DNA of 63,839 bases, counting the filler, from Atractiella rhizophila (taxonomy: Eukaryota): the NCBI GenBank assembly GCA_021432655.1. It is 3 parts of 3 records of this genome, joined end to end, with 100 filler letters (N's around TTAATTAATTAA, not from the genome) between each part and the next. Parts side by side here need not be neighbours in the genome. Positions count along the whole stretch, not along the records: positions 31,142 to 62,156 come from MU271703.1; 2 more parts are not named here. One strand, given 5' to 3'. The stretch's first letter is position 1. The number at the start of each line of letters is the position of its first letter. Positions 31,042 to 62,256 of this stretch are shown piece by piece. The notes under the pieces were generated by a model. It worked only from the letters and a program-made list of their open reading frames with translations, made no database searches and had not been told where the DNA came from. Made by a program: the position numbers and the translations under genes.

Positions 31042-31141
31042 NNNNNNNNNNNNNNNNNNNNNNNNNNNNNNNNNNNNNNNNNNNNTTAATTAATTAANNN
31101 NNNNNNNNNNNNNNNNNNNNNNNNNNNNNNNNNNNNNNNNN
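31042..31141. other. Artificial contig-joining linker (N run containing TTAATTAATTAA)
   Basis: A 12-mer with stops in all six frames at 31086-31097, inside Ns. Confidence 0.95.
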
Positions 31142-34296: not shown

Positions 34297-37200
34297 CTTA
34301 GCTATCTATCTGCCGGAGAGGGACTAAGAAGAGTTCGGGGGAGGAATGAGTAGAACTTTCGTCGTTTTGATCAGTGAAAGATTGTTGCGATCAAAAATTT
34401 GTGTACGTACTGTGAGCGTACGTCAGGTTTTTGATAAACAACGAGCCATGATTGGCCAAGTGGAGAAAGGAGGATCGTTCAATGTGCATGCTTGTCCATG
34501 GAGAAGGACAGTGCTGGGAGAAATGAGATTATTTCCTAGGCCGGAACGGACTGCAAGGTTGCAGTAAAGATATTTCAGCGGCCTCAAGTAAATTCGAGGG
34601 CAAAGCTTCCTTTTTGTTGTCTATCGTGGTGACGAATGCCCTTTCACACGATAGCTCCGAACTGCGTGACCCCTTCATGATGGTCAGCATGCCTTTCGCT
34701 TTCCTGCTCACGACAGCGGCAACACTGCACTTCAAGTAGATTACGCCAGTGACCATCTTAACAAGCGTTCCTTGTATCGAGTCGTGCTCAGAAGGTCTCT
34801 TCAGCTTTTAGAAGGAAGTCGAAGCCAACCTTTAAATTCTCCGAGCGAGGTGATTACAGCGACATTCACGTCAATGTTGTGGATCACCTCTCATTCCCTG
34901 GAAAAAAGCGATGGTGCGGGATAGTGTTCCACTGGTGGTTGTGTTGCTCCGATAGGGTGGGGTTAGGGTTTGGTGTTTGCCTGGTGGTAGGATAGTGTTG
35001 AGGGAAATGACGAGTCGAAATCGAAATCTTGAATATTGAATTGAAAACCGAAACGAACATAAAAAGCTGTTGGTAAAAGCAAAAATAGGTCCGGCCCGTG
35101 GCCGGATCATGAGTCACTGTTCGAAATCTCCCACCACCAAGGTACGTCAGAGGTCCACCCCCTTACCACCATGCCCAAAACGACAAAGTTGACAATTCGC
35201 TCCTCAAGTTCACGATCGACGCGTCAAACTCCTCCCACAGACTCAGATACCTCTGTAGACTAAATTGGGATGGCAGCGACATTCGAAACACGCTCTTTTC
35301 CATGTTTCACATTCTTAGGGTGTCATCCACACGACTTTGCGCACGCGTCAATTTCGTCGAAACGCGTTATTTTGATACCAAATTCTGATATGATTCTCTT
35401 TGAGTGGCTATACACGGGATAGGATGGGTCTGAATCGACGTGACGGTCATCCTAAGTCAAAAAGTTAGTTTGTTTTTCTTTCAGGATGATCGGCCTTTAG
35501 AGGGGGATGCTACTAGGGAATCGATAGCACAGTGGCTCGTCTTGCTGCCTGTAGAGGTACGTAGCCGCTCCTTAGCCAGTTAGACGCGTTCTAATCCCAT
35601 TTGTTGCTTCTGTCAACGTGCGATTTGCCCCGTCGTAGCTTATCGGAATGAGTCGACGCGTCGTGACTTGTGAGTGTTTCCTTCCCTCTTTCCATGCTCA
35701 CAACTGATCTCCTTCTGCTGGGGCCACACAAGGTACGTGGTTTCCCGGCTTTCTAGGGTGTTTTCTCTTCTCCCTTTTCAGTGTGTAGAGCTAACAGTTT
35801 GTTTGGGTTCTTAGGTCGCCGTCTTTCCTCATCTCCAGCGCTCAAGCGCTCGACTGGTTGCTCCATTTTGCCTTCATCCGTCTTATAGGAGTTGCATCGC
35901 ATGGAACTCCCGAAAGGAGGATCTATTAGAGGCCCAGTCTCGCCGGTTGTTGTCCCTCCCGCCTTTCCTCTCTTCCCTCCCCCACCTCTCCTGTCGGCCG
36001 CCTCACGACGCGACACGATCGTCCTCGTTATCCTACACCTTCTGCAAGTTCGCTATACTGAAATCCAGCTTTTACCCGGCAAGACGTGCTTCAAGCCATC
36101 GATAGGAGCCTTCAAAGCGCATCGTCTATTCGACTTTTGCCAAGTTTTGGTGTAGGTGACGGGAGGATTGGAAGCAGTGGAACCTGGAGAAGAGCTTGGG
36201 TTGTCCTTACCAATAACGAGCGGAGGGAGAGGAATGGGGAGGCAGTAAGATATAAGAATATGCAGTAATATGATTACTTTCAAAATAATAACACTATTTG
36301 ACCCAAAAGCAAACCCTACCTGAAGAAAACTCCAACCTAGAGAACGCTAAATGGACGAAAGCGGAACGAAACAAGAACACCATAAATACCCTATCCAAAG
36401 ACCATTGAACGAAATAGAGAACACTATCCTAACACTACTTTACCACTATCCAACGTCATTAATGACCTCAAGTAGCGCCGATTTGATGTTGTTGGATGGT
36501 GTTCGAGTGGTGTTATTTTGGCCAAGATTTAAGCCACTTGAGCACCGACCCCTAAGTCAACACCACGCGACCGCTAACTAAAGGAAGTGCGTTATTCCAG
36601 GGTCTCATTCCCAGCGTCTGTAGATTGCCATTGGATTCCTCCAACCAGCACCAAATTTTGACTCCAGCCCTCATCCCCCTCCGCCTCTGTTCTACCGCAC
36701 AAGGAACAGCATGGGTAACGAATTGCTGCATCTCCTCCATTTCATGCCGCACGCAATCTGATATCCACAGCAGGTGGAAAGGTACAAGAATGAAGCTTCA
36801 ACAAGGGTCTCTTCAACCAACCGCTATTCCGCCTGTTTTAACGATCGCGTCTTTCCGGTTTCATTCAAAACGATTGGTCTTACACAGGACAAACCAGTGA
36901 AAGATAGAATGTTCCCCAAAGCCGAAATGGATTGTGACCACTGACTTGCGCCTCTTGTGTGTATGTCAACTAGGATGTTCAGGAGGTTCAAAGTACCATG
37001 AATTTGACACTGGACCTCTCACATTCGAATGATCTTTCAGCAGGAAGTCGAGGTACTCAGGGCAAAGTTGGAGAACTTGTCACTTTTGGAAAGACCTCAA
37101 GAAGGATCTAGACTTCTCGAGAGCGAATACAATCCACCTGCGCACGTTAATTGGAGCCGAAAAAACCTGAGATTCGAAGAGTGCGGCGCTGGTGATTTTG

Positions 37201-38101: not shown

Positions 38102-40139
38102 ATGCTGTCAAAGCACTCTAGAGACCCGAAACGAGTAGTAATCCACCTGGATCTAGACAATTTCTATGTCGTTCGTCCTACCAGCACCTAACACAGAATG
38201 TCTCTTTACCATTAACAAGGCGTGCGAACGTGTTCTGAACCCTGTGCTCGTGGGGAAGCCTGTGGGTATAAAACAGAAGGCGATATTGGCGACCTGCAGT
38301 TATGAAGCTCGCGAGCGAGGGGTAAAGAAGTGCGTCTGCCCTTTTTTAGGAGGAAAACCTCTGAGATATTTCCCTTGAATAGGCTCAGCAGGGTCAGAGA
38401 TGCGCTTGAGTTGTGTCCAGACATCATTTTGGTCAATGGGGAGGTAAGCACCGTTTCACGCTCACCGCCCACTAAGAGCTGTGTAGGACCTTACGAACTA
38501 CCGCCGCTTCTCGCTACGCATACGACAACATGTCAAATCCATGCTACCTCCTTTGACCCCAGTCGAGAAACTTGGTCTGGACGAGCTGTTTATCGACGTT
38601 TCTTCAGTTCCGGGAATCACTACCCCAACCACCGCGGCGACTTTAGCCCAATCTATCAAAGACTCCATTAAGGAGACAATTGGCTTCACTTCTACTATAG
38701 GGATAGGAAGAAATAAGTTGATTGCAAAGTTGTCTGGAGAAGGGGGGAAACGGCCAGACGGGTTGACTGTCTGGGATGCGGAAGAAGGCGAGAATGAAAC
38801 GAGAGATTGGCTCGGGAAAATTGAAGTTCGCAAGTGAGCAGCTACTTTTCTATGTAATACCTGTTGACGAATCATCACATAGAATTCCTGGCTTCGGACA
38901 CAAAACTGTGCAGACCCTGATGGAAACCATAACAGCGAACAGATCCACTCCTCCTCCCAATCCGCTCCATGTCTCCGACGTCGTCTCTTTGCTTCCTCCA
39001 TCTCGCTTTCCTCCTTCCCTCCAATCTCTGGGTGCACTCCTACAAGGATTCGATCACACTCCAGTGACGATGACTCCGCGCTATCCTTCGGTCCTATCAA
39101 TCGAAGACTCCTATCGCAATCTGTCGCCTTCTTCCCTTCAGGTAGAAGTGACAAAACACCTCGAATCTGTCATCAGGAGGATGGAAGAAGAGCTAACTTC
39201 GGAAGATGGAAAGACATGGGAGATGTGGCCAAGGACTGTCAAGGTCACCTTGCTCTGGAATGGTGGAAACGGGAGGGAAAGTAAGGGTGCGAGATTGGGA
39301 ATCGAGGTGTTTGACAAGGAAAGACCGTTAAGCGAACGAGCCGAGCTAGTGTGGAAATCAACCCTGAAAAGAGTCGTTGAAGGCATGACGAAGGGGAAGG
39401 AGAAGGAATCCCTGGTCATGTACATTGACCTCTTGTTGTGCCGCGCTAATTCAAGCATAGTATCAACGTCGCCGTCACGGATTTGACAAAGGAATGTCCC
39501 GGACGAGGCATACAAAGCTTGTTTGCGCATCCTCCCCCAGCCAAAGTGAAGGCGGAACCGTCAAGCACCACCATAGACCTTGAGATGCTGAAAGAGCTCC
39601 CGAAGGAGATACAAGACGAGTTGATCAAGGAACATGGTATAAAGAAACGAGATTTAGGTGAGTCCTTAGTCCATGCATTGATATGCATTGATATTCATAC
39701 ACATTGCAACAACAGAGAAAAGTGGGATCGTCACAGAAGAACGAACATCGAAACGGCGAAAGAAAGACGTCCGAGACTTTTTTGCGCCGAAGGTCTCTCA
39801 GAATATTAGCAAGCCAAAAGAGAAGGTGGATCTGCAAATGCTTAAGGAGTTACCAAAGTCAATGCGGAAGGAGATGATGCATCAATACGGCATCAGTCAA
39901 GATGACCTTGGTTTGTCCTCCCCTGTTTCCCAGTATGTACATTATTAATTGCAGAGATAGACTCTTTTGAAGAGAAGAATCATGAACAAGCTGATGACCA
40001 AGTGCCGCAAGCTGAGGAGGATCCTGCACTACCTGAGATTGTGGAGAACGAAGGAGAGCTGACTTGTTCCCGTTGTAACGCTACTGTTCTCCCCTTTGCT
40101 GTTGATGCTCATTTAGCATATCATTTGGAAAGATGTTAA
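38102..40139 (+). CDS. Y-family translesion DNA polymerase (Pol iota-like), multi-exon
   Basis: VIHLDLDNFY; ATCSYEARERGV; EKLGLDELFID; IGIGRNKLIAKL; IPGFGHKT (HhH); two UBM-like motifs (DLEMLKELPKEIQ, DLQMLKELPKSMR); C-terminal UBZ-like CSRC...HLAYH. Confidence 0.92.
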
Positions 40140-40557
40140 GGACCATTAAACGTCTTTCCACAGCCTACCAGACTTCCACGCCCAGCTCTTCCTTCTCAAA
40201 GTATACACAATCTGGATAACGTGTTCAAGACTACAAAGGATGATTGCTGATTGTGTTTGAAGGTAGTAGTGAAGGCTGTCCTTAATGTTGACAATTGTCA
40301 TCGAGGCAGGACTTGAAGTCTAAAGGTGCAGTTCCATCCTCCTCCAAGTGAAAATAACTCGATAACAGGCTCTCGTTCTCGAGGCAAAGGGACGCGAATG
40401 AGAGATTGATATTCCACGTGCAAAACTGATCCATTCTCTTGACTGTTTAGCGAGGGGGGTGAACGAGGATCGCGCGAGCACTGCCAGACCCTCCTGGGGT
40501 TCTTCAAAGTGCTCATGCAAAAGGAGGTAAACATACCAGCGATACATAATTGGACGT

Positions 40558-43500
40558 TACTTCGCGTATAACCCGAGCCAAACTCCCATTTCCGCCAACC
40601 AAGCTGTGACCCCTACGACCTTACTTTCTACTACTACCAATGCATGTACACGAGTCATCCCGTCTGCTATAGTAGTTCAGTCAAAGCACAGGAGACCAAA
40701 CATACATGACTGCACTGGCGCGTGTCGCAACGACCAGTAGCTGAGAGGTGTCCAAATGAACTCGTTCAGTAACAGCCCGTAGGCGAGTAGCGTCTTACAA
40801 CGCAGCAACCTCGTGGACTGTCGCAGTTTCCTGTACAGGGAAAACGTGACCACTGGGGTAGCGTATGTCTACAACGTCTCGTGCGCCTACAGTTCTTTTA
40901 CTACCTGCGTTAGTTACAAGTGTAGGCTTTTCCACGCGCTTAAAGTACTATCATATCATAAACAATGATTGGACATCGCTTTCTATAACCTAGGTATCGT
41001 TGAGATCCGCCCTAACGTCATAGAGCCAACGGCTTTTGCTCTAGTCCCTTCTGGGAGGCAGCTTGATAAGCGTGAAACCATCTCTTACGGAGGCAACCCC
41101 TTATAGTATTTGGTCGTGGGAAGGGGGGATGTTAACTTCTACGAAGTTAGCAGCTTCTACGGTCCCCTCGATAGTTGTTTCAAAAGCTTCGGTCTCCGCG
41201 TTGTTTTCGCTTCGAGACTTGTCAAGTCTTCGAATGCCTGAGAGAAAGCGCGGCAGCTCCACAAAATTCACACGAAGGAAATACATATGCGTTTTATTTT
41301 CNNNNNNNNNNNNNNNNNNNNNNNNNNNNNNNNNNNNNNNNNNNNNNNNNNNNNNNNNNNNNNNNNNNNNNNNNNNNNNNNNNNNNNNNNNNNNNNNNNN
41401 NNNNNNNNNNNNNNNNNNNNNNNNNNNNNNNNNNNNNNNNNNNNNNNNNNNNNNNNNNNNNNNNNNNNNNNNNNNNNNNNCGTAGAGGATGCCTGTCCAA
41501 GCGGAGAGGTAGTAATGTTGTCGAAGAAGGAAGCGACTTCTCTTTTCATCCACGACCTGCTTCAGTTCTGCGAGCGGCCTCACGAGGCAGTAGCAGACTT
41601 GCACGTCTTCCCGCTGTCTCAGCAGTAGATGTACGGGTACCAGGGTCGCTGGCGGAAGAGGTACGAGCGTACGCGAGCTGACCCGCGCTATGTGAGGCAG
41701 CAGAAACCACCTAAGCGCGGAGGTCTTGAGCGGTTCGCGTAGGAGAGGAGCTCTGGCTTCCACTAGGAGAGCCGGAGGAAACCTTATCTTGGCTTCCCAG
41801 AGTAGCTGATGGTACGAGAAGAGCCTCTTCGATAACTGTAACAATTCTTCCTCTCGCCACCTTTCCATGTAGGCCTTACACACTAAAACTCCGCACTTTA
41901 ACGCCTAAAATGATTACGCTGCCTACACCACTTCTTTCCTCACCTCCCTTAGTCCTTTAGACACGTTGACTCCCTTGCCCTCTCCCTAACCTTACAACTT
42001 CAATTATGCCACTCCTTCCTCCCCTTTGAACAAGTTCTCGGACTTACCCAAAGCTCGTTTCTAGGTAACATGTAAGAGATGTGGAGACCTTGATGACCAT
42101 CCGGAGATAGAGATAACTGCGAAGCATAGACTAAGTGTACAATCCATACGGCTTCCCTCAGCACTCCCTGTTACCACCGGTACGACAGCGAGAAGCAATA
42201 GCTACCTTGTATGAAAACCTAACTCTTTCTTGCTATGGTAGCGAACGAAGAGCCTGACGCCAACCCAACAGCCGGTAAGGATCATGCGTAGTGGAAGGAA
42301 GTAGTCACATGTTCGGGATTAAATCAACGTCATAATAGATACGTGGCGACGAAAACCCTCGCTGGTCGCACTAGAAACTTCCTTTCGGGTAAGAAGGCCT
42401 GCGTCCGTAGAAGACCGTTTCGCTCAAAAGAAGTAGTAGGCGTGTCACAAGACAAGGACTGACGCGCAGGAAGGTCAACAAAGCGCTATAGCGCAAAGGA
42501 CGGAGAAGTGACGAGGTTGTCGCGAGGCTCGATAGTCTTCTCTTCTAGGCCTCCGACTGAACTACTTCTTCGTGTTGTAAGCTTCGGAAGCAAGTGAGAA
42601 AGATCGACCACTTGCTAGGCTCGGCCATAACAGTCAGCCATAGTTCTCAACAACCCGCTTGACCCTCGTGGACCTCGACAACACTTGCTGTTCATGTGGA
42701 AGAAAAATTTTCCCATTTTCCGAGAAAGGGAGAAACATAGTGAAAGCATGCTTTTGAGGCTCCTTCGGGGGTGGAGCAATGTCGATCTAAGCAGTTGTAG
42801 CTCGTGTTGAGAATGCCATCGGGAAACCAAGTGCCCTGAATTCGAGCGGGAGGTAAGTACTCAACGGGAGATGATACTGTGTAAACAACTGCTTCACATT
42901 CAACAGTGTTCTTGCGAAATATTCCGAGTGACCACCTGTAAGTCCTCACACCTGCATCCTTCCTACTTCGATAATAAACTAGAGTTATGATTGCTAGATA
43001 CAGATAAATAATTTCGCGACATCATCTTCTCTTTCGAGCCGCAGGTTCAGTTCAGGCGATACATCGACGATAACGTTCAACCAGATCACGCTTCATCAAC
43101 TTCCCAGACGCAAACACACTAGAGCAGAGAGATTCGAGTTGGGATGTGAACTCCGTGGGTGTATTATCTCGAAGACGAGCCTTCGCTTAATCATGAAGAC
43201 GACTTTCAATCTTGCCGCTCATAGACCTCATTTCGTTGTAATGTCTTTGAGGCAAGTTACCACATTTATGAGGACGACCATTCACAACTATGTAACAGAC
43301 ATGTGCGATACAAAGAAGCTACAGTTGCTTCTTTTGCTGGTAATTCGAAACGTAGAATAACAGTGAACAGGACAATACACCTAGAGACCAAACGGTGGTG
43401 GATCTCTCATTGCAGAGACGCCGCGAGCAACTCTCCACACTACAAACACAACACTGCCACTCTCGCTCCAACAACACAGCAACAAAACGGTCAGGAAATG

Positions 43501-43654
43501 GACACACCTTCTCCCAAGCCCTCCTCGGCTCCCTTTTCCACTCCAACATCTTACTAGCCTCCATCCAGAATGCCTCTCCGCCATCCTTCTCCCTCCCTCC
43601 AACCAACGAGCTCTCGTGGATGCGCACCTGTTGGTGCTGCGTCTGCGTGGACAT
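40558..43654 (-). CDS. Acetyl/propionyl-CoA synthetase (PrpE/ACSS3-like) with a C-terminal PTS1 (AKL); exons 1-2 lie on the normal minus strand, the rest in mirror blocks
   Basis: Exon 1 (43654-43508) MSTQ...AFWMEASKMLEWKREP and exon 2 (~42836-42720) GTWFPDGILNTSYNCLDRH are normal minus strand. The un-reversed complement of 41481-42720 and 40558-41219 supplies KGDRVVIYMPM, RLGAIHSVVFGGF, YTSGTTG-MPKGVVRDNGGH, LAGE, FDTGDAG, SRADDIINVAGHRLST, LPKTRSGK and ...TKAKL*. Confidence 0.9.
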
Positions 43655-43989
43655 CGTTCTCCCGACTTGAACTATGCTTCTTGGGTACAATAGTCTCTTC
43701 AGGAAGGTGGCCAGCTTGGCTCTTGAGAGTATCGAGTGTCGAACAGACAGGTACTCGCGAAGGAAGTATTGTGGAAGTGACAGAGGCGAGGCAGAAAGGC
43801 GGGGTAACTGAGTTCGGCCCTTTCTTAGGCTATTGGGCTAATTTGAAATGCTATCAAGCAAAAAGCAATCGAAGCCGCGAACCAGAACGTCGCTGTTCGG
43901 CCTCCAATTAACATCTTAGATCTACGTGTCCAGCACTTCCCTCGACCTTTCTCTTCTTCCGAGCAACCCACCAATCAGCAAGCACCAAC

Positions 43990-48593: not shown

Positions 48594-50610
48594 ATGCCTG
48601 GTGGTGCTGTCGTCGCTGGTTCCTCCGACCTTAACAGGATCGAGGCCCCTGTTACTATTAAGGGTTCGTCTTTTTCTCGCCTTGGGAGACATTTCTGATG
48701 CTGGCAACGTTGCAGCGTACCTTCTTTGCGCCTTCGCATCCTTTGGAGGTATCTTCTTCGGATACGACTCCGGTTACATCAATGGTGTTACTGGATCTGC
48801 TATCTTCAAGCACCTCATTGAGGGACCGAACGCCACTGCTCTGACGTCCTCTCACAACTCCCTGATTACCTCTATCCTCTCTGCTGGTACTTTCTTTGGT
48901 GCGCTCATTGCTGGTGACTTGGGTGCGTCTTTTCGTCTATTCTATCGAATTCAGAATTGAGCTAATTTGACCCAATAGCTGACAAGTTCGGACGAAGGAT
49001 CATCATCATCTGGGGATGCGTTGTCTACATGGCTGGTGTCATCATTCAAGCTGCTACTCAAGGATCCAAGACTACCGCCCTTACCCTGATTGTTCTTGGT
49101 CGTATCGTTGCTGGTATCGGAGTCGGATTTGTCTCGTTCGTTTTCTATCATATCCCGAGGCGACCAGCTCACATTGCCGCAACAGTGCCATCATCATTCT
49201 GTACATGTCCGAGATTTGCCCTCGCAAAGTTCGAGGTGCCCTTGTCTCGTGCTACCAGTTCTGTATCACCATCGGTATCCTCCTCGCCTCTTGCGTCACC
49301 TACGCCACCGAGAGGCGTGACGATAGCGGTTCCTACAGGATCCCCATCTGTATCCAGTTCGCTTGGGGTCTTATCCTTGGTATCGGATTGTTCTTCCTTC
49401 CCGATTCCCCCAGGTTCTATGTTAAGCACGGAGACATCGAGAAGGGACGAGAGGTGCTCGCTAGGCTCCGTGGTCAACCCGCTGACTCTGAGTACATCGA
49501 GCTCGAGCTTGCTGAGATTGTCGCCAACGCTGAGTTCGTCTTTTTTCATGCTTCAACGACCAGTAGCTAACCTCCTCATTAACAGATACGAGAGGTCCGT
49601 TATTCCTCAGGAGGGCTTCTGGTCCACTTGGGCTGTTTGCTTCACCGGATCTCTCTGGAATCAAGCCTCCAACGTCCGCCGTGTCATCCTTGGTACTTCT
49701 CTTCAAATGATGCAGCAGTGGACTGGTGTCAACTGTATGTCCCTCCATTCATCACTCAGACTATAGATGCTTAATGGAGGTATAGTCATCTTCTACTACT
49801 CTACTCCTTTCCTCCAGTCCACCGGAGCCATCAAGAACACTTTCTTGATCTCCCTCATCTTCACCCTCGTGAACGTCTGCTCGACCCCCATCTCATTCTG
49901 GACCATTGAGAAGTTCGGACGTCGCCCTCTCCTCATCGTCGGTGCTGGTGCCATGGCCATCTGTCAATTCCTCGTCGCCATCATCGGTGTCACCGTTGGT
50001 TTCAACAAGACCCACCCTGACCCCAATGATCCCACCAAGCAGCTTGCTAACAACATCCCTGCTGTCAACGCCCAGATCGCTTTCATCTGCTTCTTCATCT
50101 TCTGGTTCGCCTCCACCTGGGGACCTGGTGCTTGGGTACGGTTTTCTTTAAAGTTGTCCGCCTCGTTCTAATATGACCCTTCAGGTACTTATTGGAGAAA
50201 TCTTCCCTCTCCCCATCCGATCCCGTGGTGTTGCTCTCTCCACTGCCTCTAACTGGCTCTGGAACACCATCATCGCCGTCATCACCCCTTACATGGTCAA
50301 TGAAGACCAGGGTAACCTTAAGTCCCGCGTCTTCTTCATCTGGGGTGCTCTCTGCACCTGCGCCTTCGTCTACTCTATCATCCTTGTTCCGTACGTTGCT
50401 TTCACTTTTCCGCTCCATCTCTTACTCACGGGATTTGTAAATTGTAGTGAGACTAAGGGCTTGACCCTCGAGCAAGTCGACAGGATGATGGAGGAGTCCA
50501 CTCCCAGGACCTCCGCCAAATGGAAGCCCCACTCCACCTTCGCTGCCGATATGGGCCACGCTGGTGATGAGAAGGAGAAGGCTATCGTTGACGAGAAGCA
50601 CAGCGCTTGA
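48594..50610 (+). CDS. MFS sugar porter (high-affinity hexose transporter-like), multi-exon
   Basis: GGIFFGYDSG; DKFGRR; YMSEICPRKVRG; PDSPR; QQWTGVN; IEKFGRR; WGPGAW...GEIFPLPIRSRG; PETKGLTLE. TATAAAAG at ~48490. Confidence 0.96.
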
Positions 50611-62156: not shown

Positions 62157-62256
62157 NNNNNNNNNNNNNNNNNNNNNNNNNNNNNNNNNNNNNNNNNNNN
62201 TTAATTAATTAANNNNNNNNNNNNNNNNNNNNNNNNNNNNNNNNNNNNNNNNNNNN
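62157..62256. other. Artificial contig-joining linker
   Basis: N run with TTAATTAATTAA at 62201-62212. Confidence 0.95.

Follow-up and report, generated by a model that had tools for sequence, protein, structure and literature searches.

A spliced acyl-CoA synthetase gene of Atractiella rhizophila emerges when the complement of positions 40449-41301 and 41481-42708 is read from left to right, that is, from two blocks that stand in the public record reversed and not complemented. The arrangement is very probably an artefact of assembly finishing, in which gap extensions were written reversed without being complemented, and no real feature of the genome. Positions refer to the window, the whole stretch of 63,839 nucleotides that was analysed, which consists of three scaffolds placed end to end. 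Five N runs are found in it. Four of them, of 44 N each, make up two artificial 100-base spacers of the form N44-TTAATTAATTAA-N44 (31042-31141 and 62157-62256), which carry stops in all six frames; given that the scaffolds were joined artificially, features are not readable across these spacers. The sole true gap is the remaining run of 179 N at 41302-41480, the unclosed remainder of a gap, and it separates the left block (40449-41301, 853 nt) from the right block (41481-42708, 1228 nt). The limits of both blocks were drawn from the loose ends of read-derived contigs, and the gene in them was identified through a public protein, P0003.

P0003 was found with the translation of the ordinary-strand exon (P0001) as a query among longer proteins, which gave three candidates, one of them at E <= 0.001. 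It is a protein of 691 residues, named by its source 'putative acyl-CoA synthetase [Atractiella rhizophila]', and it comes from a record different from the one studied here (a contig of 38,655 bases there, a scaffold of about 31 kb here). We then used P0003 as the tblastn query, with the as-written window and its complement as subjects. Seven HSPs were returned, two of them on the minus strand as written (residues 1-79 and 49-94). The other five are complement-only and lie within 40455-41216 and 41551-42786. The complemented, unreversed sequence, for which such a search had been proposed as a check, thus gave strong matches, covering residues 98 to about 427 at 41551-42692 with the best E value of 1.6e-146 and residues 488-691 at 40455-41216 with an E value of 2.3e-87. 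With P0003 as the query, no as-written HSP falls inside either block, in line with the claim that the gene is invisible to six-frame translation. Of the 691 residues in P0003, our exon model covers 631 and departs from them by two substitutions, K232R and I498V. The central claim of the earlier note, an acyl-CoA synthetase gene written as a complement without reversal, is therefore borne out by identity at 629 of the 631 aligned residues. So close a match over 631 residues argues that the window derives from the same species as the source of P0003, or from a very close strain or allele.

The peptides on which that claim had been built were recovered from the complement-only, left-to-right translation of 40400-42800: ISYGQ, VLDEVKTLAGVLRHRLNVQKGDRVVIYMPM, YILYTSGTTG, MPKGVVRDNGGH, SDCGWVVGHS, LAGERSEP, VVND, AYWARFEGKGGWFDTGDAG, VAGHRLSTG, LPKTRSGK and TKAKL*. 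The same translation, made by script, also contains WFDTGDAG. The long complement-only stretches carry the hallmarks of an adenylate-forming enzyme. The core motifs of such enzymes are YTSGTTGxPKG, TGD and PKTRSGK, and all three are seen both in the complement-only translation and in P0003.

The gene begins on the ordinary minus strand. Exon 1 (43508-43654, M1-K49) reads MSTQTQ..RRAWEK and is identical to residues 1-49 of P0003. It is followed by intron 1 (42836-43507, minus strand, 672 nt, GT..AG) and by the 5' part of exon 2 (42709-42835, minus strand), which extends from G50 through KWE to the first base of S and reads GTWFPDGILNTSYNCLDRH..GKWE. The N-terminal exons had previously been assigned to the ordinary minus strand at 43654-42720; the strand was right and the limit was not, as ordinary sequence runs down to 42709. 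The end of the right block accordingly moves from 42720 to 42708, 12 bases less. In the complement of the right block, read left to right, the rest of exon 2 (41481-41497) is followed by exon 3 (41551-42097), exon 4 (42145-42282), exon 5 (42332-42420) and exon 6 (42477-42692), and the block closes with 42693-42708, the first 16 nt of a further intron. The left block, read in the same way, holds exon 7 (40449-40513, reading ..PPLAPSALVTVWEDPKKFH), exon 8 (40564-40677), exon 9 (40727-40932) and exon 10 (40984-41219), which includes the stop codon at 41217-41219. The start of this block had been put at 40558; at its corrected position of 40449 it contains one more exon (40449-40513) and one more intron. 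A 3'UTR at 41220-41301 completes the left block, with the AATAAA that had been described after the stop located at 41294-41299 in the complement reading. The ordinary minus-strand sequence at 40198-40448 would in the real genome come after this 3'UTR.

Seven whole introns, of 47-56 nt in the complement-only direction, lie inside the blocks. The GT..AG borders that had been ascribed to the introns hold for six of the seven and fail for the one at 42421-42476, which is bounded by GC..AG; the partial eighth intron, at the end of the right block, opens with GT. The GC..AG intron may have a genuine minor-class donor, or may reflect a base error in a low-quality block. Two single-base deletions, near 42200 and 42625, are present as had been described, for at each place two adjoining segments of the protein match overlap by one base, with a change of frame. 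In addition, the six consecutive G at 40454-40459, which read as six C in the complement, probably include one base too many. Probable one-base indels therefore number three in the blocks, as against none in 274 coding bases on the ordinary strand. Apart from these likely sequencing errors, the hidden gene is intact.

Reversing each block in place restores colinearity, as had been proposed: P0003 then maps to the minus strand in 12 segments, the first starting at 43654 and the last ending at 40534. After this operation the frame is unbroken over the 42709/42708 junction, where it reads ..GKWESISYGQV... We also considered reversing 40449-42708 as one unit, and rejected it. In that case the C-terminal exons would precede the middle ones, and the frame over the 42709/42708 junction favours in-place reversal. 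The missing middle of the protein had been placed in the N gap, and that is where it falls, VVND stopping at residue 427 and PPLAPS beginning at residue 488. The gap thus lacks about 58 codons (P0003 residues 429-486, out of the missing residues 428-487), which corresponds to about 175 nt together with the remainder of one intron. Since the missing residues need about 175 nt plus intron sequence, the true gap exceeds 179 nt by a little, and a length of about 210-230 bases is expected.

Contigs built from public reads show directly where the written letters cease to hold. Logan contigs of four public runs were aligned to 39400-43800; X1 and X2 represent one sample, X3 and X4 two others. The sample of X1 and X2 may be the source of the window itself, which makes these two runs well suited to a test for an artefact and not independent evidence on the species. 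Each of the four runs has a contig that agrees with the window up to 40448, at the left junction, and then departs from the written letters. The loose end past 40448 reads CTTTTATTTTGCGTATACATAAAGGAAGCA, which is the window read backwards from 41301, and its identity to the reversed block is 30/30 letters in X1, X2 and X4 and 21/21 in X3. Record 2 of X1 and record 10 of X2 (460 nt) fit 40198-40448 and then go on for 208 letters that do not fit. At the right junction, again in all four runs, a contig agrees with the window from 42709 rightwards and is preceded by a loose end unlike it. Here the loose end of X1 and X2, taken as a consensus of two contigs with 0.93 agreement, matches the window read backwards (41481 onwards) at 27 of 30 letters, and the disagreement looks like two alleles. 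In X3 the last 18 of 18 letters match and are followed by exon sequence from which the 53-nt intron at 41498-41550 has been spliced out, so that the spliced contig reads ..ISYGQ|VLDE.. across the junction. X4, which represents a more distant organism, differs at a few places at this junction. The contigs thus leave the written order at 40448 and at 42709 and follow the reversed ends of the blocks, in support of the earlier proposal that extensions written without proper reverse-complementation hide an otherwise intact gene.

X3 and X4 include contigs without introns, and the hidden gene appears in such spliced contigs. Both runs skip intron 1, with 672 bases left out between 42834 and 43507 (cut +1, borders CT..AC when read on the + strand). 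Loose ends were visible over at most 30 letters, and the interiors of the blocks are supported through the protein match and not through reads. Mean word depth was 0 in 14 bins covering 40576-42633 in all four runs; an uncovered stretch of this kind is by itself no evidence.

An approach that uses composition instead of homology singles out the same blocks. We computed a 5-mer likelihood score of forward versus reversed orientation in segments of 400 nt, measured against the k-mer usage of the genome itself and trained without the blocks and by leave-one-out. Three hundred normal segments gave a mean of +35.2 (sd 18.7, minimum -13.9), with six of them below zero, and each of the six segments that lie fully within the blocks scored between -25 and -58. 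Among about 300 segments, the orientation test flags only these blocks. The change points of the cumulative score, at 40550 and 42681, fall close to the read-defined edges, at distances of up to about 100 and 30 bases, respectively. When ORFs of at least 130 aa were counted, 30 and 28 were found in the two ordinary strands, 8 in the complement-only and 6 in the reverse-only reading; the ORF at 41551-42129 is among the eight. A second reversed block was considered at 35400-36600, where scores of -12.7 and -13.9 and a reverse-only ORF of 150 aa (35799-36248) are found. This candidate was rejected, as it looks like pyrimidine-rich non-coding DNA with no gap nearby and is probably noise.

How might such blocks have arisen? 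In an earlier scaffold, a gap of about 2.3 kb would have separated contig ends at 40448 and 42709. Both ends would afterwards have been extended, by 853 and 1228 bases from lower-quality, indel-prone data, in a step that left 179 N. Each extension string would have been put in reverse order without being complemented, which is equivalent to the opposite strand complemented and not reversed. The real genome very probably has each block flipped, and on its minus strand carries an acyl-CoA synthetase gene that is intact, spliced and expressed. Each block indeed spans exactly the distance from an old contig end, at 40448 or 42709, to an edge of the N run. This extent, together with the indels that the blocks carry, fits material added by gap extension, and we infer that a gap-extension program was the cause. 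A reverse-complement routine that skips lower-case letters was also considered as the source, and was rejected: it would leave the true strand complemented in place, and what the blocks show is that strand reversed. A phrase search of the literature found no description of a fault of this kind under the phrases used, and other wordings could be missed by such a search.

The reversal might instead have been introduced in some other step of data handling, such as a format conversion, a post-assembly edit, or a faulty routine that acted on certain pieces only during the flipping of a scaffold. The result would still be an artefact. That the error is a pure string operation is compatible with any of these, and the window, with its scaffolds joined by N44-TTAATTAATTAA-N44 spacers, has evidently been post-processed at least once. 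However, the blocks run exactly from contig ends to the single N run and contain indels, which fits gap extension, and the four 400-nt segments beside the artificial spacers score as normally oriented (+47.8 to +57.5). We therefore regard an origin in another handling step as improbable, and gap extension as the much better account of the blocks.

Far less probable, to the point of being negligible, is that the arrangement is real and that kilobase segments were copied in parallel, in reversed and non-complemented orientation. The record as written is all that speaks for it. Against it, contigs of all four runs enter the reversed blocks at both junctions, the spliced X3 and X4 contigs give a colinear transcript, and P0003, which a different record of this species encodes, is complete and colinear. 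It is also established knowledge that no known replication or repair chemistry yields copies of this kind. As far as is known, DNA synthesis is always antiparallel and no polymerase works parallel to its template; a kilobase of reversed, uncomplemented sequence is thus without a known biological source. Even less credible is the notion that chance produced the resemblance in the complement-only reading, or that the blocks hold a decayed pseudogene. The three one-base indels that break the frame could be taken as signs of decay, yet E values as low as those reported above for both blocks, identity to P0003 at all but two aligned residues, canonical splice sites and the splicing of the X3 contig at ISYGQ|VLDE are all at odds with it. 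Given that the blocks as written contradict the read-derived contigs and that in-place reversal agrees with them, an assembly artefact is the reading that we adopt.

The closest known counterpart is the partial filling of gaps. When gap-closing software reports a gap as reduced, it has added sequence from both contig ends and left a shorter N run. The blocks resemble such a product in their two-sided extension, in the shortened N run and in carrying more indel errors than the flanks. Unlike partial gap filling as it is known, both extensions are reversed here without being complemented. Inversions, biological or misassembled, also break colinearity with the flanks, and a flip in place would also restore the gene. 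However, an inverted segment is reverse-complemented and stays readable in six frames, whereas the blocks are only reversed, and they match P0003 in complement-only frames and in none of the six ordinary ones. Symmetry by reversal without complementation is shared with mirror repeats and H-DNA-forming tracts. These are short, mostly homopurine-homopyrimidine, and have both halves on one strand. In contrast to them, the blocks lack a second copy, measure 0.85 and 1.2 kb, and are made up of complex coding sequence.

The enzyme itself can be placed at the level of the family. Pfam profiles found ACAS_N (PF16177, 31.2 bits), AMP-binding (PF00501, 245.3 bits) and AMP-binding_C (PF13193, 68.7 bits) in P0003, all above the cut-off. 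The complete set of ACAS_N, AMP-binding and AMP-binding_C is thus present in the protein on which the profiles were run, and this protein equals the window reading at 629 of 631 residues. In this domain set the hidden gene, through its match P0003, resembles the acetyl/propionyl-CoA synthetase branch. The best NCBIfam matches of P0003 are to propionate--CoA ligase (564.4 bits) and then to acetate--CoA ligase (523 bits). In contrast to the curated equivalogs of these two ligases, however, P0003 scores under both cut-offs (564 vs 955 for NF007815, and 523 vs 657). By its domains and best matches, the enzyme belongs, within the AMP-binding (ANL) enzymes, to the acetyl/propionyl-CoA synthetase branch, a placement that concerns the family and not the substrate.

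The gene is thus an ordinary and intact one, also written correctly in another public record of the species, and the case is a lesson in data quality rather than new biology, with its value lying in assembly curation. Some 2.1 kb of true sequence in the record is out of reach of BLAST, six-frame translation and gene callers alike. Since reversed, uncomplemented DNA matches neither strand, a gene so affected would be annotated as truncated or missing. It is conceivable, and in our judgement somewhat doubtful, that the fault is systematic, in which case the same step may have mirrored many gap flanks, possibly also in other public assemblies from the same pipeline. If so, genes would be hidden from every six-frame search and from annotation, and scans in twelve frames or of k-mer orientation would recover them. 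Cheap detectors were sufficient here, namely complement-only and reverse-only translation and the 5-mer orientation score, and they can be applied to all gap flanks.

Several further features were seen around the gene. Over intron 1 and its borders (42818-43521), X1 and X2 give two versions of the contig. One is identical to the window, and the other carries up to 12 base differences and indels of 2 and 8 bases. The pair has the look of two haplotypes, as a heterozygous or dikaryotic strain would have. On the other side of the blocks, a contig of X3 at 39400-40143 skips three short GT..AG introns on the + strand (39420-39460, 39656-39713 and 39910-39959), which indicates a spliced + strand gene in convergent orientation to the acyl-CoA synthetase gene, towards its 3' end. 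Just upstream on that strand lies an ORF of 239 aa (38767-39483), for which no Pfam match was found. When five neighbouring ORFs were searched with Pfam, the only match was a sugar-transporter fragment at 48966-49763 on the + strand (Sugar_tr / MFS_1, E 2.2e-11), which represents an exon of a sugar-transporter-like gene.
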